Below, in pieces: positions 5,547 to 47,103 of a stretch of DNA of 64,000 nt (its first letter is position 1; each line of letters starts with the position of its first letter). The notes under the pieces are model-generated. The model was not told the origin of the DNA, did no database searches, and worked only from the letters and a program-made list of their open reading frames with translations. The stretch spans positions 15,977 to 79,976 of the forward strand of contig CAZVNJ010000003.1 in assembly GCA_964628985.1 (NCBI GenBank), written 5' to 3'. The stretch is from an uncultured Dehalococcoides sp. (GTDB lineage: Bacteria > Chloroflexota > Dehalococcoidia > UBA2979). Both the position numbers and the translations under genes were made by a program.

Positions 5547-5555
5547 CGCTGCCTC

Positions 5556-7013
5556 CTACGCGCCACGTGCCGAGCGGAGGACCCAGGTGTCCTTGCTGCC
5601 GCCACCCTGGGAGGAGTTCACGATGTACGAGGTCGAGTCCGCCGCGACGCGCGTGAGCCCGCCAGGGAGCACCCACGAGGACGCGCCGGTCACGACGAAC
5701 GGACGGAGGTCTGCGCGCCGGGGCTCCAGCCGCTCACCGTCAAACGACGGGATGGTGCTGAACTCCTGCAGCGGCTGGGCGATGTACCCCTGCGGGTTCG
5801 CCTTGAGCATGGCCCGCGCCTCCGCGAGTTGCGCAGCACTGGCCTGCGGGCCCACGACGATTCCGTACCCGCCCGAGGCGTTCGTCGGCTTCATCACGAG
5901 GTCGCCCAGGTTGGCGAGCATGAACTCCAGGTCGCTCGGGAGCGCGCCGATATAGGTGTCCACGTTCGGGATGATCGGCTCTTCGCCCAGGAAGTACCGG
6001 ATCGCCTCAGGCACAAACCGGCACGTCACCTTGTCGTCCACGAGGCCGTTCCCGATGGCATTCACGATGGTGACATTGCCGGCTCGATAGGCATCGAAGA
6101 GGCCGGCGACGCCCAGCGCGGAGTCCGCGCGGAACACCGTCGGGTCGAGAAAGTCGTCGTCCACCCGGCGGTAGATCACATGCACCGGCTCCAGGCCCGT
6201 CGTGGCGCGGAGGTACACGTGGTCCTCGTGCACCAGCAGGTCTCGCCCTTCGACAAGTTCCACACCCATCTGCCGTGCGAGGAACGAATGCTCGAAGTAG
6301 GCGGAGTTGTAGGAGCCCGGGGTCAGGATGACTGCCCGTGTCTCGTCAGCCTCCACCCCCGCCGGCCGGACAGAGACGAGCATGTCGAGCACTCGGTCCG
6401 GGTACTCGTCCACCGGCGCCACGCTCCCCGCCGGAAATAGGTCAGGCACCACATTCAGCATCGTGCGGCGATTCTCCAGGACGTAGGACACCCCCGAGGG
6501 CGTCCGCACATTGTCCTCTAGCACCCGGAAGATCCCGTCGCGGTCACGGATGAGGTCGATGCCCGCGATGTGCGCCCAGACGCCCATGGGAGGGACGAAG
6601 CCCCGCATCCGCGGGTTGAAGCCGGGGGCGCCTTCCACCAGGGCGGCCGGGATGACCCCGTCGCGGACGGAGCGTTGCTCACCATAGAGATCGGTCAGAA
6701 ACCGATTGAGCGCAGTGACTCGTTGGACCAGTCCCGCACGGATCACGTCCCACTCGCCCTCCTCGATGATCCGAGGGATCAGCGAGAAGGGGAGAATCCG
6801 TTCCGTCCCCATCTGATCCTGGTAGACCGTGAACGTGACGCCGCCGTTTAACTGCTCCAGGTCAGACGCCGCCTGCCGGGCGCGGTAGTCCTCCGAGTTC
6901 CAGCGGCGGATCCGGTGTGCGAACTCAGCGTAGGACGGGCGCACCGAGCCGTCCGGCGCGAACATCTCGTCCGGGCCGGCCAGCGTGCGGTACCCGGAGA
7001 GCAAGTCGGCCAT
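5556..7013 (-). CDS. Circularly permuted ATP-grasp type 2 protein (DUF404/DUF407 family)
   Basis: 486 aa from the ATG at 7013 (MADLLSGYRTLAGP...). Matches the circularly-permuted type-2 ATP-grasp family that is always paired with alpha-E. The track ORF extends to a GTG at 7181 with an Arg-rich, non-protein-like N-terminus, which I rejected. Confidence 0.85.
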   Translation of the reverse strand: MADLLSGYRTLAGPDEMFAPDGSVRPSYAEFAHRIRRWNSEDYRARQAASDLEQLNGGVTFTVYQDQMGTERILPFSLIPRIIEEGEWDVIRAGLVQRVTALNRFLTDLYGEQRSVRDGVIPAALVEGAPGFNPRMRGFVPPMGVWAHIAGIDLIRDRDGIFRVLEDNVRTPSGVSYVLENRRTMLNVVPDLFPAGSVAPVDEYPDRVLDMLVSVRPAGVEADETRAVILTPGSYNSAYFEHSFLARQMGVELVEGRDLLVHEDHVYLRATTGLEPVHVIYRRVDDDFLDPTVFRADSALGVAGLFDAYRAGNVTIVNAIGNGLVDDKVTCRFVPEAIRYFLGEEPIIPNVDTYIGALPSDLEFMLANLGDLVMKPTNASGGYGIVVGPQASAAQLAEARAMLKANPQGYIAQPLQEFSTIPSFDGERLEPRRADLRPFVVTGASSWVLPGGLTRVAADSTSYIVNSSQGGGSKDTWVLRSARGA

Positions 7014-7325
7014 TCGTCTCGCTTCAGCGTGCCTGCACAGTCCTGACTGATCCGGCGCGGGCCTGCTGGCTCGGCGCCATCCCGGCACGCGCCTGTAGCG
7101 ACCGACGCACCGACCGGCCAGGCCGCGGCCGGTGCCCCTCGCAGTACCGGTGCGGCGCGCCCACCAGTTCCAGGCGGGCACACGGTGCGCCGGCGCAGAC
7201 GCAGCAGAGATCCATCGAGGTACTCCCTTGTCGCGCCTCGAGCGTGCCGGAGGGGCGTTTCGGATACGTGCCGTCGATGTGACGTGGATATTACACGGTC
7301 GCTCACAGAGGGGAGGGACGTGCGA

Positions 7326-9326
7326 CTACTCCTCGGGATGGGCTTCCATGACCTCTCGGACCAGGGAACGCAGGAGGTCCACCTGGTACGGCTTCTGCAC
7401 GAATCCAGTGATGCCTCGCCCTGCGAAATGGCGCGTGGCCTCGGCCTCGTTGTATCCGCTCATCAGGATGATCGGCGCGTGCGGGTCAATGGCTCGCATC
7501 TCACGGAACGCCTGCTCCCCGTCCATGCCCGGCATGGTCAGATCGAGCAGGACGAGCCCAACTTCCTGCTGGTGTTGGCGGAAGGTCTCGACGCCCTGCA
7601 GGCCATCGTCCGCGGTCAGCACCCCAAGGCCCCAGTTCTGCAGGAGACGCGTCGTCACCGCACGCACCATCGAGTCGTCGTCCACCACGAGGACCATCTT
7701 GCTACTGATGATGGCGGGCGGCCGCTGCGAGGAGCGGGACGTCGAGGCGTGAACCAAGTCAGCGCCCATCGCCGGGATCAGCACCCGGAAGGTCGTCCCA
7801 TGACCCGGTTCGCTGTAGACCTTGATCGCTCCGCGGTGCCCGCGCACGACGCCCAGCACCACTGCGAGGCCGAGGCCGCGGCCGGTGAACTTGGTCGTGA
7901 AGAACGGGTCGAAGACCCTCGCACGGACATCCGGCTCCATTCCCTGCCCTGTGTCGGAGACCTCGAGGAACACGAAGTCCCCCTCTTCCACGGCGTCGAG
8001 ATACGCCTCATCGAGGTACGAGCGGTCAGCGTGCATGAGGCCCGTCGTCAGCGTGACAACGCCGCTGCGATCGCCGATCGCGTCAGACCCATTGATGACC
8101 AGGTTCATGATCACCTGACGCAATTGCGTAGGGTCAGCCTCGACGCGTGGCAGCCCGGGCGCGAGGTTCTGACGCAGTACGACACCCTTTCCTACTGAGA
8201 CACGGAGGAGGTGAGTCATCTCTTCCACGATTTGGTTGAGATGCACTGGGGAGAGGGCCAGGGTGCCCTTCCCCGAGTAGGCGAGCATCTGATGGGCCAC
8301 CTCTGCCGCACGCCGTCCGGCCAACTCGATGTCCTCGATGATCGGCCGCGCCGGCGACTCCGGGGACAGTTCCTCAAGCGCGAGACCTGCGTTGCCCAGG
8401 ATGCCGACCAGCAGGTTGTTGAAGTCGTGCGCGATGCCGCCCGCCAGGAGGCCCAGGCTCTCCATTTTCTGCGCCTCGCGTAGCGCCGCTTCAGACCGCC
8501 TGCGCTCCGTCACGTCCCTCACCACCGCGATGCAGATCAAGCGTCCACCGACCATCGCGCTCGAACCGGCAAGGTCCATCGGGAAGCGCGTGCCGTCCCT
8601 GCGCACGCCCTCGGTCTCATTCAACGCACCCCGGTAGATATTGCTGAGGCCCGGGCCGGAGTCGCGGAACTCCTCATATTCGGCGATGAGCTCTGGCGCC
8701 AGGATCAAGCGCGCGCTCTGGCCGATCATCTCGGTCGCCGTGTACCCAAACATGCGCTCCGCGGCCGGATTGAAGGACTCGATCAAAAGTGTTGCCGCGT
8801 CCATCACGATGATGCCGTCGACCGCCGTCTCCACAATCGCACTCAGGCGGGCCTCGGCGTCCCGCAGTGCGTTCTCCGCCCACACGCGTTGCGTGACATC
8901 GCGCACGAGGCCAATAAACATGCGCTCTCCACTCGGAAGCGTGCTCGCCGTCACTGACAGTTCGAGCGGGAAGACCGAGGCGTCCTTGCGCCGTCCCTCG
9001 ACGGTCCGCCCGGTACCGATGATCCGCTCTTCGCCAGTCTGGAAGTAATGATCGAGGTAGCCGTCATGCTCGGAGCGGTATGGCTCCGGCATCAGCATCG
9101 AAACATTCTGCCCGATGACCTCGGCAGTCTCGTACCCGAAGATGCGGACCGCAGCCGGATTCATCGACTGGACGACCCCATGTGCGTCGATGGTGACGAT
9201 GCCGTCCACGACTGCGTCGAAGACCGCGAGGGCCCGCGCCTCCGCGTCGTCCAGCGGTGGGCCGTGCTGTCCGTTGGTGCGGTCGCCTGTGGTATCCGGT
9301 ACCACCCCGCTCCCCCATCCAGTCAT
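7326..9326 (-). CDS. Hybrid sensor histidine kinase: PAS-PAS-HisKA-HATPase-receiver
   Basis: 666 aa. Two PAS blocks (IVTIDAHGVVQSMNPAAVRIFGY... and IIVMDAATLLIESFNPAAERMFGY...). H-box GIAHDFNNLL, N-box NLVINGSDA, G-boxes DTGQGM and GRGLGL. C-terminal receiver VLVVDDD...LDLTMPGMDG...KP. Confidence 0.85.
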   Translation of the reverse strand: MTGWGSGVVPDTTGDRTNGQHGPPLDDAEARALAVFDAVVDGIVTIDAHGVVQSMNPAAVRIFGYETAEVIGQNVSMLMPEPYRSEHDGYLDHYFQTGEERIIGTGRTVEGRRKDASVFPLELSVTASTLPSGERMFIGLVRDVTQRVWAENALRDAEARLSAIVETAVDGIIVMDAATLLIESFNPAAERMFGYTATEMIGQSARLILAPELIAEYEEFRDSGPGLSNIYRGALNETEGVRRDGTRFPMDLAGSSAMVGGRLICIAVVRDVTERRRSEAALREAQKMESLGLLAGGIAHDFNNLLVGILGNAGLALEELSPESPARPIIEDIELAGRRAAEVAHQMLAYSGKGTLALSPVHLNQIVEEMTHLLRVSVGKGVVLRQNLAPGLPRVEADPTQLRQVIMNLVINGSDAIGDRSGVVTLTTGLMHADRSYLDEAYLDAVEEGDFVFLEVSDTGQGMEPDVRARVFDPFFTTKFTGRGLGLAVVLGVVRGHRGAIKVYSEPGHGTTFRVLIPAMGADLVHASTSRSSQRPPAIISSKMVLVVDDDSMVRAVTTRLLQNWGLGVLTADDGLQGVETFRQHQQEVGLVLLDLTMPGMDGEQAFREMRAIDPHAPIILMSGYNEAEATRHFAGRGITGFVQKPYQVDLLRSLVREVMEAHPEE

Positions 9327-9455: not shown

Positions 9456-11123
9456 CTAGGCAGAGCACTTCACATAGACCGCTGTGCCCGCCGGAATGCC
9501 GTTCGGGAAGAGGGCATCCCACGTGAGATTGATCACCGCCGGAGCGCCCGGGATGTAGCCGACCCACTGGCCTTGCGGGTTCGTCGCCCAGAGCACGAGC
9601 CGTCCAGCAGGACAGCCGGTCGCCGTCACGAGTGCCTGGTTCGACCCGCCCCCGAAGACAAACAGTCCGGAACTGCCCGGCGGGAATGTCGTGGTCGATC
9701 CCGTCGGCGCTGGAGCGGTCCCGCTGGTGTACGTGTACCCGCCCGGTAGCGCTGCCCCGGCGCCGCCGGCATTCGAAACCACGACGAGTGCGGGACCCGC
9801 AGCAGGAGAGGTCGGCACGGACGCCAGGATCTGCGTCGAACTGATCACGTTCACGTTCGTCGCCGGCACTCCGCCAATCGTCACGATCGCACCGGCCACG
9901 AACCCGTGCCCGTTGATCGTCACCAGCGTCGGCGTCCCGACGGGCCCCGAGGCGGGCGAGACGGACGTCACGCCTATGCCAGTCGCGCTCGCGGGAGGCG
10001 TCGTCCCGGCGGCGAGATAGTTGAAGCCACCGGCGATACCGCTAATCAGTCCACCGGGGTTGGTCACAAGGACGGTGGACGGTCCGACTGTCCCCGGTGG
10101 GGTGGTCGCGAGGATCTGCGTACCGCCTGCCACGATCACATTGCCGGCAGCAAGCCCACCAAAGGTCACCGTTGCACCGGTAACGAAACCCGACCCTGTC
10201 AGCGTGACGGCCGTCCCGCCGGCGACCGGCCCGCTGTTCGGTGTGATCGTTGAGAGGACGGGCGCGGTCATCGCATACGTAAATGCCGAGTTCAGCCCGC
10301 CAACCGAACCGGTCGAGTTGCTGACGAGGACCGTGACACTGCCCGCAGCGTTAGCGGGCGTGACCGCCGTGATGAGCGTTGCGCTCACGACGGTCACCGA
10401 AGTAGCCGGGACGCCTCCAAAGGAGACCGTGGCCCCAGGCAGGAATCCAGATCCCGTGATGGACACCGCCGTGCCGCCGGCGGGTGAGCCGCTGGGTGGC
10501 TGGACCGAGGCCACGACGGGTTGAGTCGTACTTGTGGGAGTGGCGGAACCGGCGGGGTAGGAAGCAAACGAACCGTCCGGGTTCGTGACCGTCGCAGTCG
10601 CGGTGCTCACCCCAGCGGGAGCGACCGCGATGATGAGGGACGGGCCGGCCACGGCCCCGGCGCCAACCGATACTCCGCCGATCGTGACGGTGGCACCTGA
10701 GACGAAGCCGCTTCCCGAGATGTAGACCGTGTTCGTCCCGCCGGATCCGGGGATCGCATTGAGACCGGCGATCGTGACGGCACCCTGCACGATGGTCTGG
10801 TACTGGAACTGCACCGGGCTGGTGCCGGCACTGCCGTCAGGGTTCACCACGACGACATTCACCGAGCCAGCGGCCCCTGGTGGGGCTGTTGCGACCAGAA
10901 CGTTCGCGCTCGACACGATGACGTTCGAGGCGTAGGCACCTCCGAAGATCACCGACGCTCCTGAGGCGAACGCGGATCCCGTAATCGTGACCTGGGTGCC
11001 GCCGGATACCGAGCCGTTCGCTGGAGAAATCCCGGTGATCACCGGCTGAGCCGCTGATGCTGTCCCCGGAATCAGCGACAGCGCGACGGCGGCGAATAGG
11101 ACTAGGACAATCCGGTGTCGCAT
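9456..11123 (-). CDS. Secreted cell-surface protein with five tandem IPT/TIG domains and a distinct Cys-containing C-terminal domain
   Basis: Signal peptide MRHRIVLVLFAAVALSLIPGTASA. ATG at 11123 preceded by GGAGGTG. Five ~88-aa repeats of the form PxItxIxPxsGpxxGGTxVTItGsGFxxGAtVtFGG...NPdG. I rejected the upstream part of the track ORF (11124-11237). Confidence 0.75.
   Translation of the reverse strand: MRHRIVLVLFAAVALSLIPGTASAAQPVITGISPANGSVSGGTQVTITGSAFASGASVIFGGAYASNVIVSSANVLVATAPPGAAGSVNVVVVNPDGSAGTSPVQFQYQTIVQGAVTIAGLNAIPGSGGTNTVYISGSGFVSGATVTIGGVSVGAGAVAGPSLIIAVAPAGVSTATATVTNPDGSFASYPAGSATPTSTTQPVVASVQPPSGSPAGGTAVSITGSGFLPGATVSFGGVPATSVTVVSATLITAVTPANAAGSVTVLVSNSTGSVGGLNSAFTYAMTAPVLSTITPNSGPVAGGTAVTLTGSGFVTGATVTFGGLAAGNVIVAGGTQILATTPPGTVGPSTVLVTNPGGLISGIAGGFNYLAAGTTPPASATGIGVTSVSPASGPVGTPTLVTINGHGFVAGAIVTIGGVPATNVNVISSTQILASVPTSPAAGPALVVVSNAGGAGAALPGGYTYTSGTAPAPTGSTTTFPPGSSGLFVFGGGSNQALVTATGCPAGRLVLWATNPQGQWVGYIPGAPAVINLTWDALFPNGIPAGTAVYVKCSA
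9713..11051 (-). repeat. In-frame tandem repeat region encoding 5 IPT/TIG modules (~264 nt period)
   Basis: Repeated peptide blocks (GGT.VT.TGSGF..GATVTFGG.) recur with ~88-aa spacing. They are visible at DNA level as recurring ggcggcac..gtgac/ggctccgg-type strings. Confidence 0.6.
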
Positions 11124-11238
11124 TGAGGGCACCTCCAGAACCGTGTAACAGCGTACTCCTTTCACCATTAGTTTGGCGATTCGAGTTCTCACAGATTCAA
11201 ACCCCGTTTGCTGGCCGGATTCCGGACGGGCACGCACA

Positions 11239-11604
11239 ATGCCTCGCGTGAAGACGGCCCTGCCTCTCGCCTCGCTGATGCTGACCGCGGCTCTCCTGAG
11301 CGCGGTCGTTGGATTCGTCTACGCGCACGAGCCTGCGCGAGACGAGCAGGTCGTGGCGCTCCGGTCGCATGCCGGCGAGGGATGGACAGTCAGTGGCAGG
11401 GTGACCCGCATCGGCGACGGGCGGATCACGATCGACGGCGAAGGGCGCTCAATCGACCTCGCCTTCCCTGCCGGCGTGGTGGTGGAGGAACTTCAGACCT
11501 CGGCCCAGTCCGCGCTTGTCCCTGGCGCTCAGGTGAACATCGGAGTCGAACGCTCAGACGTTGGCTTTGCCCTCACAGGGATCGTGGTGGTGGCGGCGCC
11601 ATGA
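11239..11604 (+). CDS. Small secreted or membrane-anchored protein of unknown function
   Basis: 121 aa from the ATG at 11239, with N-terminal hydrophobic segment ALPLASLMLTAALLSAVVGFVYA. No recognisable family. Stop overlaps the next start (ATGA at 11601-11604). Confidence 0.45.
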   Translation: MPRVKTALPLASLMLTAALLSAVVGFVYAHEPARDEQVVALRSHAGEGWTVSGRVTRIGDGRITIDGEGRSIDLAFPAGVVVEELQTSAQSALVPGAQVNIGVERSDVGFALTGIVVVAAP

Positions 11605-12062
11605 GCGTGCGGCGACGCCTCGCGCGAGCCGCTACCTGGGCGGGACTGGCCATCGCGTGCGCGCTGGGAGCCGCAGCGGGCGTGGGGCTGGGGCACGCCG
11701 CCAGCGAGCCTCGGGTCGAAGAGATCGAAGTCACAGCCCCACGCTCGCTCACAGGTCCGCCCGAGGGGACGATCCGATCGTCAGGTGGGTTCACGGGGTT
11801 CGGTGGTCCGCCCGCGCTCCGTGGCGAAGTCCAAAGGAGCGGGCCGGTGCTGAGTGTCGAGTCCGGGTCCGTGACCGTGGGGACCATGGACAGCCACTCG
11901 ATCGTCCGCTTCACGTCTCCGGAGCGCCTCTTCCGAATTGTCCCAGCCGGCGCGCCACTCAAGGCAGGAGACCTCGTGCAGGTACGAGTCGACGGTGACC
12001 GTGCCACGTCGCTCCTGCGTCTGCCGCCGGGGCTCGAGGAAGGTGGGAACCGCCCTCGGTAG
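11601..12062 (+). CDS. Secreted protein of unknown function (signal peptide)
   Basis: 153 aa, MSVRRRLARAATWAGLAIACALGAAAGVGLGHAAS, then a beta-rich region. Coupled to the previous ORF. Stop lies 2 nt from the convergent permease stop. Confidence 0.45.
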   Translation: MSVRRRLARAATWAGLAIACALGAAAGVGLGHAASEPRVEEIEVTAPRSLTGPPEGTIRSSGGFTGFGGPPALRGEVQRSGPVLSVESGSVTVGTMDSHSIVRFTSPERLFRIVPAGAPLKAGDLVQVRVDGDRATSLLRLPPGLEEGGNRPR

Positions 12063-12064
12063 TG

Positions 12065-15000
12065 CTACTGCGTCTGTCGGAGGACCTCAGCGCTGGCACG
12101 ACGCGCGACCGCGCGCCAGGCGAGGAACAGGGCGAGCGTGGCGAGCCCGAGGATCGCCACGAGTCCGGCCGCGATGCCCCACCAGTCGCTCGCCATCGTG
12201 AATGGCGGGACCACTCGCGTCCCGGCCGGAGTCACACTGAGCGAGGACAGCATCACACTCGCGATCGTCCGGCCGAAGGCAATGCCCAGCGCGACCCCCA
12301 GCGCCGCCAGGATCCCCCACTCAAGCAGTAGGGAGCGAAGGATCTGGGGCGGCGTGATCCCCAGTGCTCGCAACACCGCGAACTCGGTGCGACGGCCACT
12401 GATCGCGATCAGGGCCGTAACCACAAACCCTGCCGCTGCCAGGATGACCACGGCCACTGCAGCCACGAGCAGGATGCCTGTACCGGAGGCCACCAGCGTG
12501 GGATCTGCGCTGGCTTCTTCGACCATCGATGCCTGGAGGAGTGGCTCGGCGATCCATACCGGTGATTCGAAGCGGCGTTCCAGTTGAGAGACAACTGAGC
12601 GTTGATCCGCAAGGGGGAGCCCATGCGCGAAGTCGACCCACAGCTCATTCGCGAACGGGCCGGCGGCGCTGGCCAGGCTGGCGACAGCTCGCAACTGGCG
12701 CCGGTCCACCACGATGAACCCTGAGCCCGGGTCGAGCGTCGGGAACAGGTGCAGTGTCCCGACGACGCGCACGGGAACCTGCACTCCGTTCGGAAGCGTC
12801 ATCGTGGTCATCCTGCCCTCTGCCAGCCCGAGGGCGCGCTGGGCGTTCACGCTGAAGAGCCCCGGGAGGGTGGCCGGGCCGACCGCGACCACGCTCTCGC
12901 GGCTTGGCGGTCCCGAGGACCACGACCATCGTCCCGCGTGGGCCTTCGAACGCGCTCGCTGGTTCGACAGCGCGAAGCTCTCCTGCATGCCGGCCTGCGT
13001 GTAGGCCGTCCATCCAGAGGGCAGTTCGAAGTCGTACAGCACGGCCGTGCGCCCCTGGGCATCGACGGCCGCGAGGTCATCGAGGTAGAGCGAACCCTCG
13101 CGGCGCACAAACAGCGCCGCATCCATCCGGAATGCGACGAGGAAGACGGGGTGCACTGCACCCGGTGGAATGCGCGCAACCATCGGGCGCCAGTCCCCTG
13201 GTGCGATCTCGTCGAATCGCGCGTCGTGGTACTCCCCCGTGGCATCGCGAAGCCGCGCTGAGATCCCGGGGACCCGACCCTCCACATCGAGGAACATTTG
13301 CACCTGGAGGGCCGCCGTCCCGCTGGGGATGGGCAGACCGGGGCCTGCCTCGGTCGGCGGGCGGATCCGCTCCAGTACTGGCCCCATTGGGCCGTCAGCG
13401 AAGTCCTCGCGGCTCCATATCATCGAAGCCACAGCAGCCGGATCGTCGATTCCGAGCACCGCCGTCTCGCTGCCACCGCCAACACGGATGTTCCCGCGAT
13501 AGGCGTAGGTGGCCGTCTGCACGCCGGGGAGCGCGCGCACACGTTCCAGGGGCTCCTGCATGTGTGGCCCCGGTTCACGGACTCGCGCTCGCATGTCCAC
13601 GCCGGCCTCATAGCGGGCTCGTTCGTCGTACGACCGTCCGACCGTAGGTCCGTATGAAGCGCCGAAGGTCGCGACTGCCACAGCCATCACGAGCAGCATC
13701 AGGAGCCGGGCATGAGTCGCCGGTGCCCTCGATGTCTGCCGTAGCCCCACCGTCACGGCGATCCCGCGGAGCGGCGTGGCCAGCCGGACGCCGATCCGCA
13801 GTAGCGGCGCGTAGCAGCGGAGCACGATCGCTGCGGCGGCGAGCATCGCGACCAATGGAAAGGAGAGCAGGAGCGGATCACTCGACCAGCCCCCCAGCGA
13901 TCCGGGGTCCAGCGCCGTGCCACTCCGCTTCAGTTGCCACCACTGCAACCCTGCCAGGGCAACGAGGGCGACGTCGAGGTAGTAGCGCTGCACGAAGCCT
14001 CTCCGGTAGGGGCGCGCGCGTTCTCGCTGGTCGTCAACCACGCCACGGCGGGCCGCAGCCCACGCCGGGAGCGCCATCGCCATGACGGAGAGGGCAGCCC
14101 CGGCGGCGGCCAGGAGATAGGCCTCGGGGCCTACGGAGACGGGCAGGGGTGCGCCGCCGGTGGTCGGTTCAAACAGCGAGGCCCGACCGAGAGAGGCCAC
14201 TACTTGCCCGGCCAACCACGGCGCCAGCGCCGCCGCCGGGATCGCGAGGACCAGCCCTTCGATGACGGCCAGCCCTACCAACTGCCCTACGCTCGCGCCT
14301 CGGCTCCGGTACACGCTGATCTCAGGGCCTCGACGCTCTGACAGCATCGAGGCGACGAGCACGATGTAGAACCCAATCACTCCGACGATCTGCAACATGA
14401 TGATCAGGATGGGGACGCGGGAGAAGGTCTGCGCCGTGCGATAGATCGCAAGTTGGTCTGCGAATGTGGTGATGCCGTGCGCCGGGAGGCCCAGGGTGAC
14501 ACGCGCGTCCTCTTGCCACGCCGCGATGCTCAGAAGCGCGTCCGGCACGTGACGCACGCCGATCTCCCGCAGGTCAGGGACCAGGCCGGCCCGCTGCCGT
14601 CCTCGCAGCTCGGGGAGGGCACGCAGCAGCGGTCCGGACTCGTAGCCCTCTGCGCTCAGGAGGAATATCAGTCCGCCGGCTCCAGGCCCCGGGTTATCAG
14701 CGATCGGCTGCTCTGGTACCGCCCAGGACGCGTCGGCGATGCGCCAGCGTAGGTCGCTGGGGTCTTCCTGGCGGACGAACCCGACCACGGTCGCCACGGC
14801 GCTCGCCGTCGAGAACGTCGATGGGCGACAACGGACCTCCGCCGCCGCGACCGCCGGGTCATCTGACCCGGGGACTGGAGGGCAGTCATTCAACGTCGGG
14901 AGCGTCAGGCGCACGCGACTGCCCACGCCCACGATGCGCTGATACCCCTCTGGCACCACGACCTCCAGTGGGCCGTCGGGTGCCGCGGACGGCATCCTTC

Positions 15001-15427
15001 CCGCTGTCAGGGAGGCGTGCCGGTCCAGACTCGACACTCCGACGACGAACGCCGGCCATGCCCCATCGCCACTACCTTCGACGGTGGCGGCAACTCGCTG
15101 CGAACGGCGTTCGACGATCTGTTCGGAGCCCAGCCAGCCGATCCGTGCATCGGTGATGGTGAGCAAGGCCGCCCGGCTCTGCCGCTCCACTGGATGGGCC
15201 AGCACAGTGTTGTCCACGTCGAGGTAGATCACGCGTTGTTGTTCGTCGACCAGGCCGCGGTCGAGGCGGAACCGGAGGCCCAGGTCAGCCATCGCATCCG
15301 CGTACGTGGGGACCGCGGCCAGAAGCGTCGCGGCAAGCAGGACGCCGAGTCCGCCCGCGATGAGCAGGCGCCAGTGCGCGCGCATCCGGTGTCGTACGAG
15401 GAACCAGCTGGTGAGTATCGCTGCCAC
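12065..15427 (-). CDS. Giant ABC transporter permease with two FtsX/MacB-type domains and two large extracytoplasmic domains
   Basis: 1120 aa, GTG start. N-terminal FtsX-family motif LVRHRMRAHWRLLIAG plus TM1. Mid-protein FtsX block ERRGPEISVYRSRGAS and C-terminal FtsX block RRTEFAVLRALGITPPQILRSLLLEWGILAALGVALG. About 10 predicted TM helices separating two ~300-aa soluble loops. Confidence 0.8.
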   Translation of the reverse strand: MAAILTSWFLVRHRMRAHWRLLIAGGLGVLLAATLLAAVPTYADAMADLGLRFRLDRGLVDEQQRVIYLDVDNTVLAHPVERQSRAALLTITDARIGWLGSEQIVERRSQRVAATVEGSGDGAWPAFVVGVSSLDRHASLTAGRMPSAAPDGPLEVVVPEGYQRIVGVGSRVRLTLPTLNDCPPVPGSDDPAVAAAEVRCRPSTFSTASAVATVVGFVRQEDPSDLRWRIADASWAVPEQPIADNPGPGAGGLIFLLSAEGYESGPLLRALPELRGRQRAGLVPDLREIGVRHVPDALLSIAAWQEDARVTLGLPAHGITTFADQLAIYRTAQTFSRVPILIIMLQIVGVIGFYIVLVASMLSERRGPEISVYRSRGASVGQLVGLAVIEGLVLAIPAAALAPWLAGQVVASLGRASLFEPTTGGAPLPVSVGPEAYLLAAAGAALSVMAMALPAWAAARRGVVDDQRERARPYRRGFVQRYYLDVALVALAGLQWWQLKRSGTALDPGSLGGWSSDPLLLSFPLVAMLAAAAIVLRCYAPLLRIGVRLATPLRGIAVTVGLRQTSRAPATHARLLMLLVMAVAVATFGASYGPTVGRSYDERARYEAGVDMRARVREPGPHMQEPLERVRALPGVQTATYAYRGNIRVGGGSETAVLGIDDPAAVASMIWSREDFADGPMGPVLERIRPPTEAGPGLPIPSGTAALQVQMFLDVEGRVPGISARLRDATGEYHDARFDEIAPGDWRPMVARIPPGAVHPVFLVAFRMDAALFVRREGSLYLDDLAAVDAQGRTAVLYDFELPSGWTAYTQAGMQESFALSNQRARSKAHAGRWSWSSGPPSRESVVAVGPATLPGLFSVNAQRALGLAEGRMTTMTLPNGVQVPVRVVGTLHLFPTLDPGSGFIVVDRRQLRAVASLASAAGPFANELWVDFAHGLPLADQRSVVSQLERRFESPVWIAEPLLQASMVEEASADPTLVASGTGILLVAAVAVVILAAAGFVVTALIAISGRRTEFAVLRALGITPPQILRSLLLEWGILAALGVALGIAFGRTIASVMLSSLSVTPAGTRVVPPFTMASDWWGIAAGLVAILGLATLALFLAWRAVARRASAEVLRQTQ

Positions 15428-15459
15428 GATGCGGGAGTCTACGCGTCACACGAAGCGCG

Positions 15460-18400
15460 GTGCGCGCCCCCTACAATCCCGCCGTGACCCGCATCCGCTC
15501 GCTCGCTGTCCTCGCCGTGCGACGCATGGCTGCCCACTGGCGCCTCGTCGCCAGCGCGGCGCTCGGGGCGGTCGTCTCGTCCGCGATCCTCTCGGCGACG
15601 GTGATCTACGCCGACACGATCCGCGACCTCGGCCTCCGGCACGCGCTCGAAGGGCCCCCGGCGGAGAGCCTGGCCGTGCAGGTGCGTCGGGACTCGACCT
15701 CAGCGCGCCGCGACGAGTACCAGCGTGCCTCCCAGCGGATCGAGAGTCAGGTGCGCGCCGCGATTGGCGACGCGACCGGCACCATCCTCCGCCAGGGGAC
15801 CAGCCAGACCTTCTACCTCACGCCCCCGGGTGGTCGCGTCAATGAAGGCGACCCGCGACGGCCTCGTGCCACGCTGCGATTCCGCGACCGCCTGGGCGAG
15901 CATGTGACGCCCGTGGCGGGAACATTCCCTGGCTCCGCGGTGCCCTCAGACGCCAGTGCGCCGCTACAGGTCGCGATCGCCGCGGACCTCGCGCAGCGAG
16001 AGGCCATCGCGATCGGAGATCGCTTCGAATTGCACCCATGGTGGGAACCCGGGCGACCGCCGTTGAGACTGCAGATCGCGGCGATCGTCCGCCCGACAGA
16101 CCCGGCCGACGACTACTGGAAGACCTCGCCGACCGCGATCGATGAGCCCGTCGGCGGTTGGCCCGCTTTCGTGTTCCTGATGCCGGAGGAGGCCTTCTTT
16201 ACCGCCCTGACGAGCCGCATGCCCACCGCGGGGACCACGTACAACGACGTCTATTCGATCCACTTCGACGGTCTCAATGCACGAAACGCGGCGTCGGTGG
16301 CCGACGGGATCAAGGCGCTCCCGGCCAACCTCGCCTCTGTGGAGCGGGACACGCTGGTCAGCTCCGGGTTGGAGCCGGTACTCCGGACCTTTGATGACCG
16401 GCTCTTCTTCGTGCGGATTCCGTTGTTCGTGCTGCTACTCCAGATCGGCGGGATCGTCTGTTACTACCTCGTGATGGTCTCGACCATGCTGGTGGAGCGT
16501 CACGCCCCCGAAATGGCGGTCCTGCGCAGCCGCGGGGCGAGCCCCGCGCAACTACTCATCGAGTTTGGGGTCGAGGGACTGCTGCTGGCGTTGCTCGCCG
16601 CCGCGACGGGCCCGCTGCTGGCCGCGGCCTTGATCTCTGCGCTCGGACCCACCCCGCCCTTTGCCGCGCTCTCGGGAGGCGGGCCGCTGTCCGTGCATAT
16701 TTCGCTCCTCTCATATGTCTTCTCGCTCGGTGGGGCGGTCTTGGCGTTTGCCTCCTTCATGCTCCCCGCGTACCGCGCAACCCGGACAACGGTGGTCGAG
16801 TTTCGGAGGGCGTCTGCGCGGCCGCGCGCCGTGCCTCTCTTCCTTCGCTATTACCTCGATGTCGCGCTCGTACTGCTCCTCGCAGTCGTCTTCTGGCGCC
16901 TGCGGCAGGACGAACAACTATTCACCCGCACTCTGTTCGGTGAGCGGCAGTCAGATCCACTACTGCTCGCCACTCCGGCGGTGATCATGGTCACCGTCGG
17001 GGTGGTGTTCCTGCGCCTCTTCCCGCTCGTCCTCCGCCTCGTGGCATGGAGCCTCACCTGGATCGCGGGCGCCGCCACGCTGGTCGGCGTACGCTCGCTG
17101 GCGCGCGATCCCACGCATTACTCGAGGCTCGTGCTCATGCTGATGCTGGCGACCGGCGTCGGCATGTTCGGCGCGACGTTCTCGGCCACACTCGATCACT
17201 CATACGACGACCGTGCCCGCTATCCGGTGGGGGCAGACGTCCGAGCAGCAGACCTCCGGCGGCTGGCCGGCGCCGGTGACGTCGCGTTCCTCCAGGCGAT
17301 GGGCGCCATCCCGGCGGGCCGGGTGAGCGCCGTCAGCCGTAGCGAGGCGCTGGCGCACTTTGGAGGAAAGACGGAGCCGCTTCAGGCGCTGGGCGTGGAT
17401 CCGGACACCTTCGGCGAAGTCTCCTATTTCCGCGGCGACTTCTCAGGTGAATCACTCGAGTCGATACTGCGCACCCTCGCGATGAACGCGCCGACTACGA
17501 CGCCGAGACTTCTGCCCGAGGGCACTCGCCAGGTGGGCGTCTGGGCGAAGTTTCCCGATATCCGAGGCCCGCTCACGCTCAACCTGAATGTCCGCGACGC
17601 CAATGGACGCGTCGAGACGTTGCCGCTCGGCTCGGTGCGCCCCGGCGACCCCTCGACCCAGGAGTGGCGCTTCTTCGCCGTCAATCTGGACGCGCGCAGG
17701 AGCGGGCCTGGAGCCCGGCCCCCCTTGGTCCATCCACTCGCGTTCGAAGCCATCTACACGTCGACCGTAAGCGCGATCGCTGCTCAGCGCGGTGTCGCGA
17801 TGTATGGCCCGCTCATGGTCACCTCCACACCAGCGACACCAGGTAGCCCCGAGGGCGACATCGGCACGAACCCATTCGGAGAAGCGCGGGTCGCGCTGGA
17901 CTTTTCCGCGCCGGGTTTCGAGCCGGTACAGGGGCAGAACATCGCGCGGGTGACCGATACGCTGACCGTGACGACGGACTCTCCGCCGGGCGCCCCCGCC
18001 GGGTCGCGCTACGTGTGGTCCGACACGCGCGTCGCCCCTCGAGAACGCGGCATCCGGCCGAGTTCGGACGGGCAGCCCGTCGCTGTCTACCTCGCTGAGG
18101 CATCCGCCGGCCGGCTCGGGATGAAGCGAGGTGACACGTTCCGCCTGCTCATCGGAGGCACGTTCACCGACGCGCGACTCGAGGGCACGTTCCGCCTCTT
18201 CCCGACCTACGACGCCAACCGGGAACGGCTCGGCTTCGCCATCGTCGAGCAATCACGGCTCGCCGCCCTCATGCGGGGGTCGCTCGCGAGCCAGAAGGCG
18301 ACCTTGAACGAAGCCTGGTTTGCCACGGACGATCCTGCCGCCACGATCGAGGCTTTGCAGGAGTACAACGCCCAGACGCTGCTGGACACAAGAGCCGAGC

Positions 18401-18861
18401 GCGCCCGCCAGGCCGAGGATCCACTGATCGCGGCCGGCTGGGCTGGGATCCTCGGGATCTCGTTCGCGACGGTGCTCGTGCTCTCGGCGATCGCCTTCGT
18501 GCTCTACTCCTACCTCACGGCGCAGCGCCGGGCGCTCGAGTTCGCGATCCTGCGTACGCTCGGCTTCTCACGCCTGCAGGTCTTCCTCGTGGTCGCGATC
18601 GAGTACCTGGCGATCGTGGTCGCCGGTATGGGGCTGGGCACGCTCGTGGGCCTGCAGGTAGGACGACGCATGATGGATGTGCTTGGCATCAGCGAGGGCG
18701 GCACGGCCGTCCTCCCTCCGTTCGCGCTGGCGGTGTCCTGGTTGCAGGTGTTCACCGTGTGGGGAGTCCTGGGGGCGGCATTCGTGCTGACGATCGGAGC
18801 GGTCGTACTACTCTACGTGCGCCTCGCGATCCATCGGGCGTTGCGCGTGGGCGAAGGATGA
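15460..18861 (+). CDS. Giant ABC transporter permease, paralog of 12065-15427 (double FtsX-type)
   Basis: 1133 aa, GTG start. N-terminal LAVRRMAAHWRLVASAALG. Internal FtsX block ERHAPEMAVLRSRGASPAQL. C-terminal block RRALEFAILRTLGFSRLQVFLVVAIEYLAIVVAGMGLG. Divergent from its paralog with 32 bp between start codons. Confidence 0.8.
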   Translation: MRAPYNPAVTRIRSLAVLAVRRMAAHWRLVASAALGAVVSSAILSATVIYADTIRDLGLRHALEGPPAESLAVQVRRDSTSARRDEYQRASQRIESQVRAAIGDATGTILRQGTSQTFYLTPPGGRVNEGDPRRPRATLRFRDRLGEHVTPVAGTFPGSAVPSDASAPLQVAIAADLAQREAIAIGDRFELHPWWEPGRPPLRLQIAAIVRPTDPADDYWKTSPTAIDEPVGGWPAFVFLMPEEAFFTALTSRMPTAGTTYNDVYSIHFDGLNARNAASVADGIKALPANLASVERDTLVSSGLEPVLRTFDDRLFFVRIPLFVLLLQIGGIVCYYLVMVSTMLVERHAPEMAVLRSRGASPAQLLIEFGVEGLLLALLAAATGPLLAAALISALGPTPPFAALSGGGPLSVHISLLSYVFSLGGAVLAFASFMLPAYRATRTTVVEFRRASARPRAVPLFLRYYLDVALVLLLAVVFWRLRQDEQLFTRTLFGERQSDPLLLATPAVIMVTVGVVFLRLFPLVLRLVAWSLTWIAGAATLVGVRSLARDPTHYSRLVLMLMLATGVGMFGATFSATLDHSYDDRARYPVGADVRAADLRRLAGAGDVAFLQAMGAIPAGRVSAVSRSEALAHFGGKTEPLQALGVDPDTFGEVSYFRGDFSGESLESILRTLAMNAPTTTPRLLPEGTRQVGVWAKFPDIRGPLTLNLNVRDANGRVETLPLGSVRPGDPSTQEWRFFAVNLDARRSGPGARPPLVHPLAFEAIYTSTVSAIAAQRGVAMYGPLMVTSTPATPGSPEGDIGTNPFGEARVALDFSAPGFEPVQGQNIARVTDTLTVTTDSPPGAPAGSRYVWSDTRVAPRERGIRPSSDGQPVAVYLAEASAGRLGMKRGDTFRLLIGGTFTDARLEGTFRLFPTYDANRERLGFAIVEQSRLAALMRGSLASQKATLNEAWFATDDPAATIEALQEYNAQTLLDTRAERARQAEDPLIAAGWAGILGISFATVLVLSAIAFVLYSYLTAQRRALEFAILRTLGFSRLQVFLVVAIEYLAIVVAGMGLGTLVGLQVGRRMMDVLGISEGGTAVLPPFALAVSWLQVFTVWGVLGAAFVLTIGAVVLLYVRLAIHRALRVGEG

Positions 18862-18865
18862 ACCC

Positions 18866-19750
18866 GTGACGCAGCCCTCGGCCGCCCCGTACGTGCAGTG
18901 CGAGGACGTCTTCAAGATCCACAAGACCCAGGAACTCGAGGTCGTCGCCCTGCGGGGCCTCGACCTTTCGGTTGCGCCGGGCGAGGTGATGGCCATCGTT
19001 GGTGCCTCGGGCTCGGGAAAGTCCACTCTCCTCAACATCCTCGCCGGCTTGGACCAACCGTCTGCCGGCCGCGTGCGCGTCGGCGAACGCGACTTGCTCA
19101 CCATGAACGACGAGGAACTCGTCGACTACCGTCGGAGCGAGGTGGGCTTTGTCTGGCAGCAGACCGGCCGGAACCTCCTCCCGTACCTCACCGCCCGTGA
19201 GAACGTCGAGGTCCCTCAACTGGTCGATGGCGTCGACCGGCGGGTGGCCAGCGTCCGGGCACTTGAGTTGCTCGCGCAGGTGGGACTGGAAGCGAAGGCG
19301 GACCATCGGCCGAACCAGATGTCCGGCGGCGAACAGCAGCGCGTCGCCATCGCAGTCGCGCTCGCCAACCAGCCCCCGCTCCTCCTGGCGGACGAGCCTA
19401 CGGGCGAACTCGACAGCGCGACGGCCACTGAGGTCTTCGCCGCCCTGCACGCCCTCAACCAATCGACCGGCGTCACCATCGTGATCGTCTCGCACGATCG
19501 CACCATCACCGAACGTGTCGACCGCGTAGTGACGATGCGGGACGGCCGCACCAGCGCCGAGTTCGTCCGGCGCGTGACCTTTGGCCGCGAACGCGAGGCG
19601 ATGGAAGAGTTCGCCCTGGTCGACCGCAGCGGGCGCCTGCAGATCCCCCGTGAGTTCGTGGACGGTCTGCACCTTGGGACACGCGCCCGGGTGGAACTGC
19701 GTGAGGACCATGTCGAGATCTACCCGTCCAGTCCCGAGGGCTCCCGATGA
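18866..19750 (+). CDS. ABC transporter ATP-binding protein (MacB/LolD-like) with C-terminal AbrB/MazE-like extension
   Basis: Walker [11 protein letters not shown]-loop, signature MSGGEQQRV, Walker [14 protein letters not shown]-loop. An extra ~65 aa carries [38 protein letters not shown] start 4 nt after the permease stop. Confidence 0.9.
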
Positions 19751-20481
19751 CTGCGACGCGGCCAGTCCCGGAAGCCTCGTCCCCGGCCGTGGAGGTGCGC
19801 GGCGTGTCCCGGCATTTCGACGGTGGGGGTCACCGCGTCTACGCCGTCCGCGACGTTTCGCTGACGGTGGCGCCCGGGGAATTGCTGGCGATCGTCGGGC
19901 GCTCCGGCTCCGGGAAGACCACGCTGCTCAACCTGATCGCCGGGCTGGACCGGCCGGACGAGGGCGCCGTGTTGCTGGAGGGCCGGGACATCACCGCAGC
20001 GACCGAGGCGGAACTGACGGCGCTGCGGCGCAGCCACATCGGCTTCGTGTTTCAGTCGTTCGGCCTGCTCCCGCTCCTCTCGGCGGCGGAGAACATCGCC
20101 CTTGCGCTACGCATCGCTGGTGCTAGCAGCAAAGACGAGGGCCAGCGGACGCGAGAACTTTTGGAGATGGTGGGGCTGACGGCCCGGGCCGGGCACCGTC
20201 CCTACGAACTCTCCGGCGGCGAACAACAACGCGTCGCCGTCGCCCGGGCGCTTGCCAACCGACCTAGGCTGCTGATCGCGGACGAGCCCACCGGGGAACT
20301 CGACACGGTGACCGGCGCACAGATTTTCGGGCTGCTACAGGCAGCAGCCGCGGACGGCGTCACGATCGTCATGGCGACGCACGACCCGCTCATCGTCGAC
20401 TACGCGCATCGGGTGGTGGAGATGTCGGACGGGCGCCTGGTGGAGGGCGGCGAAGTCTCGCGGGGGATGCGGCGGGACTGA
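19747..20481 (+). CDS. ABC transporter ATP-binding protein (second, distinct ATPase)
   Basis: Walker [10 protein letters not shown], signature LSGGEQQRV, Walker [16 protein letters not shown] overlaps the previous stop (ATGA). Confidence 0.9.
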
Positions 20482-20570: not shown

Positions 20571-21218
20571 TTACCGCTTGCGGGCGGTGATGACGCGTGC
20601 GCCGCCAACCGCAACGAGCGCGACGGCGATGAGGCCGAGCGCCATGTAGCGGCCTGCCTCGTCCGCGGACTCGTTCAGGCCGCCGTTACCGGTTTTCGCC
20701 GGAGCCGCTACCGGGGCAGGAGCCGCGGCAGCGGCGGTGATCTGCGCACGGATCTCGCCACCCGGGTTGGCCGTAGTGTGCACGTTCACGTAGAGCGTGC
20801 CGGCCTTGAGTGCGGTGACGAACCCGGCCATGTTGCCGGCCAGCGCGCCCGCGAGGTCCGCTGCACGCGCCGTGCCGGAGACGTTGATCGTGGAAACCGG
20901 CGCACCGGTCGGTGCGGCGAACAGGTTCACGACAATGCCGCCGTTGCTGCCGGCCGCGCCGCTGTGGATGTGGGCCGCGGTGGCGTTGGTGATTGCTGGC
21001 ACGCTCAACGTCCATGCAAGCGTCCCCGCTGCCTCGTCAAGCGTTGCGGAGAAGGTGCCGGTCGCCGTCGTCGTGACCGCCGGGACCTCGTTGGCACCAG
21101 CGAGCTTCGCCTCGAACTTCGCGCCTGCAGCCTGGCCGAGGACCACTGCCGGGAGCAGGGCCGCGGTCGCAGCGATCGCCAGGCTTGCGCCCAGCCATCG
21201 CTTCTTCTGGATCGTCAT
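20571..21218 (-). CDS. CHRD-domain protein, secreted with C-terminal membrane anchor
   Basis: 215 aa. Signal peptide. ANEVP...ATG...AHIHSGAAG...GGIVVNL CHRD pattern. C-terminal hydrophobic GRYMALGLIAVALVAVGG followed by basic residues. RBS GGAGGAA. Confidence 0.7.
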   Translation of the reverse strand: MTIQKKRWLGASLAIAATAALLPAVVLGQAAGAKFEAKLAGANEVPAVTTTATGTFSATLDEAAGTLAWTLSVPAITNATAAHIHSGAAGSNGGIVVNLFAAPTGAPVSTINVSGTARAADLAGALAGNMAGFVTALKAGTLYVNVHTTANPGGEIRAQITAAAAAPAPVAAPAKTGNGGLNESADEAGRYMALGLIAVALVAVGGARVITARKR

Positions 21219-21317: not shown

Positions 21318-21872
21318 CTAGTACCCATCATTCGTCGAGCCAGAGCCTCCCGCCGGGGTGCCAGGCGCGGGGGTGGCGCCCGAGGGCGTGCCCGGACTTC
21401 CACGCCCGCCGACCTCGAAGGCCGCGAACATGCCCGAGATGTAATGACTCGCGACATTGCAGAGGAGGACGTACCGGCCCGGCTGCAGGGACACCCGCAG
21501 GTCCTGCCTGCCACCGGCCTCGATGGGCTGGGTGCGGGACACAAGCTCCACCTGCTTCTCGTCCACGAGTTTCTGCTCGAACTGAGGCAACTTGTCGGGC
21601 GCCAGGTTGCTCTTCACCACGACGAACTCGTGCGGGATCGCACCGGCGTTCTGCACCGTGAACGTCACCTCCCCGGCTGGCACCGCCGCGAGGGCCGGCG
21701 CCACCGAGAAGTCCTTGAGTGCGACCGAGACCGTGCTGGGGCGTGGGGGTGCCGCCGCCCCACTGTCCGCCTTCGGCGCCGGATCTGAGGAAGAACAGGC
21801 ACTGAACGCGAAGCCGAGCGCAAGCCCCACTACGAGGCGGGAGCACCGCCTCCACTGCCATTGAGATGCCAT
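21318..21872 (-). CDS. Cupredoxin-like (type 1 copper) lipoprotein
   Basis: Lipobox LGFAFSAC. Candidate copper ligands His in IPHEF and Cys/His/Met in [12 protein letters not shown] (H-C-H-M). Ser/Thr/Pro-rich C-terminal tail. Confidence 0.65.
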
Positions 21873-21981
21873 GTCCAGACTTTCTCAGCGGCCGCGCTGG
21901 GTTCTGTGCCTGTATACGCCAGCCGAGACCGCCACAGATCCAGTAGCCTGCCGCGCAGACACCGCCCAGGAGGATCCAGCC

Positions 21982-23532
21982 ATGACCACCACCACCACTC
22001 CTACCGTCCAGACCACGGCCGGCGCCGTCCGCGGCTTCGTCGACCGCGGCGTCCAGGTTTTCCGAGGGATCCCGTACGGTGCCCCCACCTGGGGCGCGCG
22101 ACGTTTCCGCAAGCCCGAGCCGGCACCGCGCTGGGACGGCGTGCGGGACGCCCTCGAATTCGGCCACGCGACGCCGCAGGAGAAGCCCGTCGCCGAAACG
22201 GCCGTCGAGGAAGGGGAGGACTGCCTCGTCCTCAACGTGTGGACGGCCTCGACCGAGGATGGCCGCAAGCGTCCGGTCATGGTCTGGCTCCACGGCGGTG
22301 GCTTCCGGAACGGCGTCGGTGCGACGAAGGCGAGCGACGGCGTGAACCTGGTGAAGCGCGGCGATGTCGTCGTCGTCTCGCTCAACCACCGACTCAACGT
22401 CTTCGGCCACCTCCACCTTGCGGACCTCTGCGGGCCCGACTTCGACGGCGGCGGGATCGCCGGCGTGCTCGACATCGTGCTGGCCCTCCAGTGGGTGCGC
22501 GACAACATCGAGGCGTTCGGCGGTGACCCGTCGAACGTCACGCTGTTTGGAGTCTCCGGCGGCGGGCGGAAGATCAGCGTGCTCCTCGGCATGCCCGAGG
22601 CGAAGGGGCTCTTCCAGCGCGGCATCATCCAGAGCGGCGCCCACCCGCGCGCCGTCCCGCGCGAGATGGCGAACGGGCTTGCCGAGCGGCTGCTCGCACG
22701 AGCCGGCCTCAAGCCCTCAGAGGTCGCGAAGTTGCAGGCGATGCCAGTGAAGCAGGTGAACGACCTGATCTACGGCCTGATCGACGACGAGGCGGGGCGT
22801 GGCCTGCGCACCACGCGCATGATGCTCTCGCCAGTCATCGATGGCACTCACCTGCCAGGCGACCCGTTCGGTGGTGTGGCAGCGCCGACGGCGGCAGGCG
22901 TCCCCATCATGATCGGCACGATGCGCGACGAGATGGGTACCTACCTCGTGCGGATGCCGGAGATGGCCAGTGTCACCGAGGAGGGGGTGGGCGACATCGT
23001 GCGGCCGGTGCTCGGCGAGCGGACCGCCGAAGTGATGGCGGTGTACCGTCAGAACCGGCCAGGCATCACCCCGTACCAGTTACTCGTCGCGATCGCGAGC
23101 GAGGACCGCCGCTTGCTTTCGATGCAGATCGCCGAGCAGCAGTCTGCGACGGCGCCCGTCTATATGTACCAGAACGCCTGGAAGTCGAACGCTGGCAACG
23201 GGCTGATCGGCGCGGGCCACGGCCTCGACACGCCGCTCGCCTTCGACAACGCGGACGGCCGGCCGACGACGGGCACGGATCCGAACCGCTTTGAGATGGC
23301 GGCGCTGGTCGCGGAGACCTGGATCGCCTTCGCGAAGACCGGCGACCCGAACCATGCCGGGCTCCCAACCTGGAAGCGCTTCGATCCAGCCGGGCGGCAG
23401 ACGATGATCCTCGACCTCCCGCCGCATGCCGAGGCCGACCCGAACGGCGTCGAGCGTCGCGCGTGGGACGGGATCAGCGTGAACCTGCCGTGGGAGGGCG
23501 CGGCGTTCGCCGGCGCATTCAGCGCCGACTGA
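21982..23532 (+). CDS. Carboxylesterase type B family (para-nitrobenzyl-esterase-like)
   Basis: [39 protein letters not shown] (nucleophile elbow). ATG at 21982 with CAGGAGGA 7 nt upstream. I rejected the track's earlier start at 21871. Confidence 0.85.
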
Positions 23533-46982: not shown

Positions 46983-47103
46983 CGCAGTCTCCTTGCCCGC
47001 TATCTCCGGGGCGGGCCGCAGTGTACCGGAGGCGGCCCCGGGTGGCATGGATACGGCATCGTGAGAGCCCGGACCCATAGAAGATGCACGCCGACCGAGG
47101 GTT

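Follow-up and report, generated by a model that had tools for sequence, protein, structure and literature searches.

ABC (ATP-binding cassette) systems of type VII, among them FtsEX, LolCDE, MacAB, BceAB and YbbAP, drive key processes of the cell envelope by mechanotransmission. In the YbbAP-TesA complex, determined by cryo-electron microscopy in 2025 (PDB 9GE6/7/8; PMC12646458), the permease YbbP contains ten transmembrane (TM) segments, which form two FtsX units joined by TM5-6, and two periplasmic domains, inserted between TM1 and TM2 and between TM7 and TM8. Two YbbA subunits are bound per YbbP, the coupling helices lie in the TM2-3 and TM8-9 connections, and between TM6 and TM9 there is a pocket that is open to the outer leaflet (PMC12646458). 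According to a 2018 review of the MacB family, the characterised permeases with two fused units have a separately encoded ATPase, and none is described with two different ATPases. Here we examine a stretch of 64,000 nucleotides (nt), referred to as the window, from a metagenome-assembled genome (MAG) of Dehalococcoidia (Chloroflexota; G+C content ~68%). It carries two divergently transcribed permease genes, A and B, the latter followed by the genes of two different ATPases, 1 and 2 (Table 1). We propose, with somewhat better than even confidence, that the four products would together form a type VII ABC system working by mechanotransmission, with the same kind of ATPase heterodimer, composed of one long (ATPase 1) and one short (ATPase 2) subunit, on both permeases.

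The sequence analyses support the assignment of the four window proteins to the type VII (MacB/FtsX superfamily) ABC systems. The FtsX family PF02687 matched each permease twice (66.9 and 53.6 bits; cut-off, 25.5), hydropathy gave about ten TM segments for each, and both ATPases are of the MacB/LolD/FtsE type. Among NCBIfam models, the best matches were LolD, MacB and YbbA for ATPase 1 and FtsE, LolD and DevA for ATPase 2, in all cases below the equivalog cut-offs. The closest database proteins of the module are from Dehalococcoidia or other Chloroflexota MAGs. Permeases A and B are full-length paralogs with 29% identity, and ATPases 1 and 2 are 49% identical to one another. Only 4 nt separate the stop codon of permease B from the start of ATPase 1, and the two ATPase genes share the ATGA at 19747-19750, both as read in the sequence. 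An original prediction, made from the DNA alone, had described the four open reading frames (ORFs), two FtsX domains and about ten TM helices per permease, the ATGA overlap and type VII membership. These points were borne out by the ORFs, the Pfam matches, hydropathy and the structure model described below.

We then surveyed the arrangement in 79 genomes of GTDB species representatives, all Chloroflexota; the denominators given here are the loci with enough sequence. Permease B was followed by an ortholog of ATPase 1 in 70/70 loci and by an ortholog of ATPase 2 in 66/66, one of which was split. In locus L032, the ATPase 2 ortholog appears at 14419-15061 as two overlapping tblastn segments, where a frameshift or an assembly error is possible. 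The two ATPase genes always adjoin, and overlap by 4 nt in about half of the loci. Permease A was divergently adjacent to permease B in 27 of 62 loci. Those non-adjacent A-type orthologs that were looked up proved to be orphans: no ABC ATPase is encoded within 8 kb of them. One lies on the same contig as the B operon, at a distance of ~81 kb. In the clade with a non-adjacent permease A, the B operon adjoins polA and fpg. Locus L006 (7101-9959, minus strand) and ~24 similar loci have the permease B operon divergent from DNA polymerase I, with a 250-aa (amino acid) unknown protein and an SNase-like protein downstream of the operon. In a neighbour-joining tree, A-type and B-type permeases form separate clades across all Chloroflexota sampled.

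Eight more distant loci of the family were also examined. Seven of them (L084, L085, L086 from Kitasatospora, L088, L089, L090 and L092) contain two giant permeases, arranged divergently or in tandem, together with a long and then a short ATPase. Along with the adjacent pairs in Chloroflexota, these loci answer a concern raised with the original prediction, namely that the two permease genes might never be co-conserved. The gene order permease-ATPase-permease-ATPase was never seen in the loci examined. As for the size of the family, at least 1109 members were found at E<=1e-30 with HMMER among 1.84 billion cluster representatives (clusters at 50% identity), and most of the 150 best matches listed are 1090-1150 aa long. 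Named members belong to Chloroflexota, with Streptomyces and Kitasatospora contributing more distant ones; a characterised member was not found in the searchable literature. A 951-aa homolog from Anaerolineae, considered as a possible member, falls outside the family and is a single permease accompanied by a membrane-fusion adaptor.

The primary structures of the two ATPases were compared in detail. Among 70 long and 64 short orthologs, conservation is at least 95% for the motifs of Walker A, the Q-loop, the signature, Walker B with the catalytic Glu, and the H-loop. We had considered the presence of one degenerate ATP site, but rejected it because all motifs are canonical in both ATPases. Two features are found in the long form only. 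The first is a two-residue insertion directly behind the Q-loop glutamine. The corresponding segment in E. coli YbbA reads FQSFM--LIPTL, and ATPase 2 is likewise without the insertion. It is at least 95% conserved in the long-ATPase orthologs and is found in the long nucleotide-binding domain (NBD) from Streptomyces as well. The second is a C-terminal tail of ~60 aa with the motif DRxGR(L/V)Q(L/I/V)P, present in every long and in no short ATPase examined. Long and short ATPases form two clades in a neighbour-joining tree, each spanning Chloroflexota and Actinomycetota, indicating that the duplication is old. The sequence comparisons support the view that the two ATPases are non-redundant, diverged anciently and have always been kept together.

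Concerning the tail of ATPase 1, matches to the Pfam families MazE_antitoxin and MraZ were weak (E 0.011-0.16 in 6 of 8 orthologs), the best reaching 16.1 bits against a gathering threshold of 24.7. Some tail-like database fragments carry a precomputed PF02381 match. A profile search of the PDB returned MraZ with an E value of 0.034 and AbrB with 0.3. A database search with the tail gave mostly short fragments, which served for alignment depth and not for architecture statistics. In the AlphaFold2 model of the tail, the core has a predicted local distance difference test (pLDDT) score of 79-93. When this model was searched with Foldseek, 17 of the 20 top matches were SpoVT, AbrB, MazE or MraZ, with probabilities of up to 0.99 and E values of 0.12-2, and the best of them superposed with root-mean-square deviations of 1.1-2.4 Å over 35-50 columns. 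From the model and these matches we conclude that the tail is a predicted single SpoVT/AbrB-type swapped-hairpin domain. The top PDB matches in sequence were to SRP54/Ffh of the signal recognition particle (SRP), with E values of ~0.01 and the string VDxxGRLQI (window ~19607-19680). This kinship was rejected as a spurious match of a short string, because the shared motif there belongs to the SRP G domain, which has a different fold. In the searchable literature, we found no ABC ATPase reported to carry a domain of the AbrB/SpoVT type.

The structure of permease B was modelled with AlphaFold2 from an input alignment of 90 sequences (pLDDT 90.8, predicted template modelling score 0.83). The order of elements in the model is TM1, a first extracytoplasmic domain (ECD1), TM2-4, a TM5-6 hairpin, TM7, a second extracytoplasmic domain (ECD2) and TM8-10. 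The model contains the four-TM unit of type VII systems, in which the first and second helices flank a large extracytoplasmic domain. A Foldseek search of the PDB gave E. coli YbbP (9GE6_A) as the best match, over the full length and with an E value of 4e-17. The next matches were MacB, BceB, LolC/E, YtrF and HrtB, with E values of 1e-10 to 1e-4 for MacB, LolC/E, YtrF and HrtB. The match to the YbbP fold, together with the same topology, means that the permease layout is known and not new; as judged from the model, it is the already characterised YbbP-type 10-TM pseudo-dimer. The pseudo-dimeric nature suggested in the original prediction thus held, and its statement that no characterised homolog has such a layout did not, as YbbP shares both the ten TM segments and the two periplasmic domains. 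The proposed size of three to four times that of typical permeases was also revised: the reference class was wrong, and relative to the double-FtsX YbbP (804 aa) the factor is ~1.4. Instead of two domains of ~300 aa each, the extracytoplasmic domains of permease B are unequal, at ~240 and ~395 aa.

ECD1 of permease B aligns with a YbbP periplasmic domain in the full-length Foldseek match, and ECD2 holds a beta-rich insert of ~180 aa (residues ~690-870) in the model. The isolated extracytoplasmic domains of both permeases matched no Pfam family in a scan at E<=5. At the sequence level, PDB searches with both permeases returned only weak matches to single FtsX units (LolC and YtrF), and YbbP was not among them. 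Orthology to YbbP was not detected by sequence: with hhalign, the family profile matched one FtsX unit at 61% probability, and BLASTP gave an E value of 0.08.

We next consider the segments that would contact the ATPases. Across the family alignment, conservation in the permease peaks at the two coupling-helix loops, with 3.25 bits for loop 1 and 3.17 bits for loop 2 against 2.25 overall, and TM5, TM7 and TM8 rank next. In loop 2, at least 90% of the residues are identical in 38% of the columns. The extracytoplasmic domains are the least conserved part (1.87 bits for ECD1 and 1.74-1.99 bits for ECD2). Loop 1 corresponds in position to coupling helix 1 of YbbP, and loop 2 aligns in hhalign with the YbbP segment AILKTLGAGRAQL. 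Loop 1 is of the type E-x-x-x-L-R-S-R-G-A-S and loop 2 of the type E-F-A-x-L-R-x-L-G, and both types are common to A- and B-type permeases. Taking into account that both loops are the most conserved segments, an ATPase is probably docked at each FtsX unit of permease A as well as of permease B, as is the case in YbbP. Invariant charged residues were found in the TM5-6 hairpin (R463, D467, R519 and the pair D499-P500) and in ECD2 (R658 and D660), and these are candidate functional sites. W736 of ECD2 is likewise invariant.

Table 1. Positions in the window of the four genes of the module and of the protein segments discussed in the text.
Feature	Position	Strand	Description
Permease A, double-FtsX, 10 TM	12065..15427	-	1120 aa by longest ORF; two FtsX stretches; ~10 hydrophobic segments
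Divergent spacer, permease A / permease B	15428..15459		32 nt between longest-ORF starts
Permease B, double-FtsX, 10 TM	15460..18861	+	1133 aa; first gene of permease-ATPase-ATPase operon
Permease B ECD1, TM1-TM2	15652..16368	+	Residues ~65-303, ~240 aa; AlphaFold2 secondary structure
Permease B coupling-helix loop 1, TM2-TM3	16495..16557	+	Residues 346-366, ERHAPEMAVLRSRGASPAQLL; divergent 'RSRGAS' type
Permease B ECD2, TM7-TM8	17230..18417	+	Residues ~591-986, ~395 aa; AlphaFold2 secondary structure
Permease B coupling-helix loop 2	18523..18585	+	Residues 1022-1042, QRRALEFAILRTLGFSRLQVF; canonical FtsX type
ATPase 1, 'long' NBD, MacB/LolD/FtsE-type with C-terminal tail	18866..19750	+	294 aa; Pfam ABC_tran E 5e-35
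ATPase 1 Q-loop with two-residue insertion	19154..19177	+	W97-QQTGRN-L104; aligned to ATPase 2 and E. coli YbbA
SpoVT/AbrB-like (swapped-hairpin) domain, ATPase 1 tail	19607..19732	+	Residues ~248-289
ATPase 2, 'short' NBD, canonical MacB/LolD/FtsE-type	19747..20481	+	244 aa; Pfam ABC_tran E 7e-38

In the assembly that we favour, a long and a short ATPase would be docked together on each permease. The modified long ATPase would engage the divergent 'RSRGAS' loop and the canonical short one the canonical loop, leading to a fully asymmetric complex, and one ATPase pair would serve both permeases. If the module works like YbbAP, LolCDE and BceAB, the TM1/2 and TM7/8 stalk helices would be moved, along with the extracytoplasmic domains, as ATP is bound and hydrolysed, and the target of this work would lie in the outer leaflet or outside the membrane instead of being a solute of the cytoplasm. 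In A and B, the poorly conserved extracytoplasmic domains may confer two specificities, or may carry out two steps on one substrate.

A shared long-short heterodimer is the most economical reading because the ATPase genes are always adjacent and coupled, because the order permease-ATPase-permease-ATPase does not occur, because permease A can relocate without an ATPase, and because divergent and canonical docking loops are matched by a modified and a canonical ATPase. Adjacent, overlapping ATPase genes are the order typical of heteromeric pairs such as OppDF.

Several points weigh against a shared heterodimer. We infer its stoichiometry from gene order, conservation and the asymmetry of motifs, and the known 10-TM relatives YbbAP and BceAB use ATPase homodimers. 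In locus L083 from Streptomyces, the eighth of the more distant loci, two permeases are present with only a long ATPase within 8 kb. The AbrB-type fold is dimeric, and its usual swapped-hairpin barrel needs a second copy; a lone AbrB-like domain would fit a homodimer of long ATPases, or paired complexes, better than a 1:1:1 complex. The internal duplication of the permeases is older than the split between A and B, so that distinct motifs in the two coupling helices are trivial, and the argument from matched asymmetry is weak. Finally, a conserved partner gene was not found: the neighbours recovered by all-against-all clustering of the flanks were housekeeping genes, such as polA and fpg, all of them clade-specific.

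Some of these points would be explained if the module encoded two co-regulated transporters with homodimers of their own, two long ATPases on permease B and two short ones on permease A, an arrangement we regard as unlikely but still worth weighing. The AbrB-like tails would then pair beneath the NBD dimer, like the regulatory domains of MalK or MetN, and each tail would have its second copy. Two permeases and two ATPases, the homodimers of the characterised 10-TM relatives, and L083 with its long ATPase as the only one nearby are all in line with this arrangement. On the other hand, two separate transporters would not lead us to expect ATPase genes that always adjoin and are often translationally coupled, nor a gene order that never alternates. 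A relocated permease A also leaves 'its' ATPase behind in the B operon, and L083 itself indicates that two permeases can go with a long ATPase.

The dimeric nature of the AbrB-type fold can also be accommodated in a larger assembly. Here the two permeases, each bearing an obligate long-short heterodimer, would be coupled via the tails of the long ATPases, and ATP turnover would be coordinated between two distinct extracytoplasmic heads. The tail might additionally serve as a switch in the cytoplasm, for regulation or for sensing a ligand. We consider such a coupling improbable, and slightly more so in its complete form, a supercomplex in which a long-short pair on A and another on B are joined by tail dimerisation to give six chains with 20 TM segments acting on one substrate. 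It would account jointly for the strict pairing of the permeases, the ATPase pair and the single-copy dimerising tail. However, permease A can be located ~81 kb from the operon, and a supercomplex has no precedent in type VII systems.

That the module merely reflects duplications of an FtsX permease and of an ATPase, functionally uncoupled from each other, seems very improbable. Paralogy is clear in both cases, and duplications of ABC genes are common. Nevertheless, both duplications are ancient and both copies are kept in all lineages sampled, each ATPase type has conserved features of its own, and the A-type permeases are without an ATPase of their own. Redundancy of the ATPases had been named in the original prediction as the finding that would speak against it; the two ancient clades and the presence of both genes throughout the loci surveyed show otherwise. 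Equally hard to credit is a BceAB-like module that would sense and detoxify antimicrobial peptides together with a nearby histidine kinase. In its favour one could cite the 10-TM topology shared with BceB and the PAS hybrid histidine kinase at 7326-9326. However, BceB contains just one extracytoplasmic domain, none of the related loci has a counterpart of the kinase, and the operon in many relatives adjoins polA in a housekeeping context.

With regard to the region between the permease genes, the pair is divergent, as predicted originally, but its orientation is head-to-head and not 'back-to-back', with 32 nt between the starts of the longest ORFs. In the public annotation, permease A begins at the ATG at 15385, 14 codons later, and is 1106 aa long (a 1106-aa cluster member with 100% identity). 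With internal Met starts, the spacer between A and B would be 74-140 nt. In relatives, the aligned parts of the A and B genes are 36-116 nt apart in 23 of the 27 adjacent loci. A promoter scan of the spacer gave no match to the sigma-70 consensus, and terminator-like sites were found at chance level only.

On the permease A side, a 284-aa ORF (11208-12062, plus strand) is convergent with permease A; it has no Pfam match, and its conservation is partial in L001-L005 and weak in L023. Directly downstream of permease A, on the same strand, is the gene of a 593-aa protein with four IPT/TIG domains (9456-11237, minus strand). It is kept in place only in L001, L003 and L004, and could be a surface protein or a mere neighbour. 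The genes for the TIG-domain, CHRD and ATP-grasp proteins are conserved only in the closest relatives (L001-L005). The CHRD-domain protein is encoded just downstream of ATPase 2 (20571-21218, minus strand). The ATP-grasp, circularly permuted, is found with an alpha-E domain protein at 4587-7181 (minus strand), conserved in L001, L004 and L005; alpha-E and circularly permuted ATP-grasp proteins are a known gene pairing. The kinase mentioned above is a hybrid sensor kinase on the minus strand with two PAS domains, HATPase_c and a receiver domain, and a homolog is present in 0/79 related loci. A type-B carboxylesterase (21871-23532, plus strand) is reminiscent of TesA, the partner of YbbAP. As no related locus contains a homolog, a functional link to the module is unlikely. 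Farther away, the window encodes a 1416-aa Lhr-type large helicase with DEAD, Helicase_C, WH_Lhr and DEAD_assoc domains (27575-31825, plus strand), and a fused duplicate of 870 aa with two stretches of CoA-transferase family III (44466-47078, minus strand), adjoined by a GNAT/SCP2 acetyltransferase (43234-44466).

The loci examined here combine paired pseudo-dimeric permeases with two specialised ATPases, one of which carries an AbrB-like domain. If the heterodimer is real, the module would provide a natural test of the share that each ATP site and each FtsX half has in mechanotransmission. Such a module may, in addition, hint at an envelope function of Chloroflexota and of some Actinomycetota.

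When the module is compared with known systems, extra C-terminal domains that dimerise beneath the NBD pair are found in MalK and ModC (TOBE) and in MetN (NIL), and adjacent, coupled ATPase genes encode heterodimers in OppDF, LivGF and EcfAA'. These all belong to importer classes, and their likeness to the window ATPases is an analogy. ADOP permeases (TIGR03434) are also duplicated FtsX permeases and often orphan, but the window permeases are not members, scoring 30.9 and 20.7 bits where the cut-off is 622.3. LolCDE, also of type VII, resembles the module in that its two permease subunits are paralogs that are not identical and form an asymmetric machine. It differs in that LolC and LolE are single units of four TM segments forming one heterodimer on a LolD homodimer, whereas the window permeases are fused pseudo-dimers and the ATPases differ from each other; the LolC/LolE equivalog score of the permeases is 36.1 bits against a cut-off of 473. 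With respect to MacAB-TolC, no gene for an adaptor of the HlyD/MacA type was present among the window neighbours or in related loci.

BceAB from Bacillus (PDB 7TCG, 8G3A) shares a 10-TM FtsX-type permease, separately encoded ATPases and a target that is extracytoplasmic or in the outer leaflet. BceB is without the first extracytoplasmic domain and has a single one between TM7 and TM8, whereas the window permease has two. The BceA homodimer and the co-evolving two-component system BceRS also have no counterpart in the window module. A heterodimeric ATPase pair in a type VII system was not reported in the literature that could be searched, and the combination of two permeases with two specialised ATPases, a modified Q-loop and an AbrB-like tail appears to be undescribed there. 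The closest system remains YbbAP. The window permeases have the same 10-TM layout as YbbP, with two extracytoplasmic domains, the TM5-6 linker and two coupling helices, and are ~330 aa larger, mainly owing to the insert in ECD2. YbbAP-TesA includes a hydrolase, while the window module is without a conserved TesA-like hydrolase and its host is monoderm. Above all, YbbAP consists of one permease with a YbbA homodimer, whereas the module described here has two paralogous permeases and two distinct ATPases, the latter in 66/66 loci.

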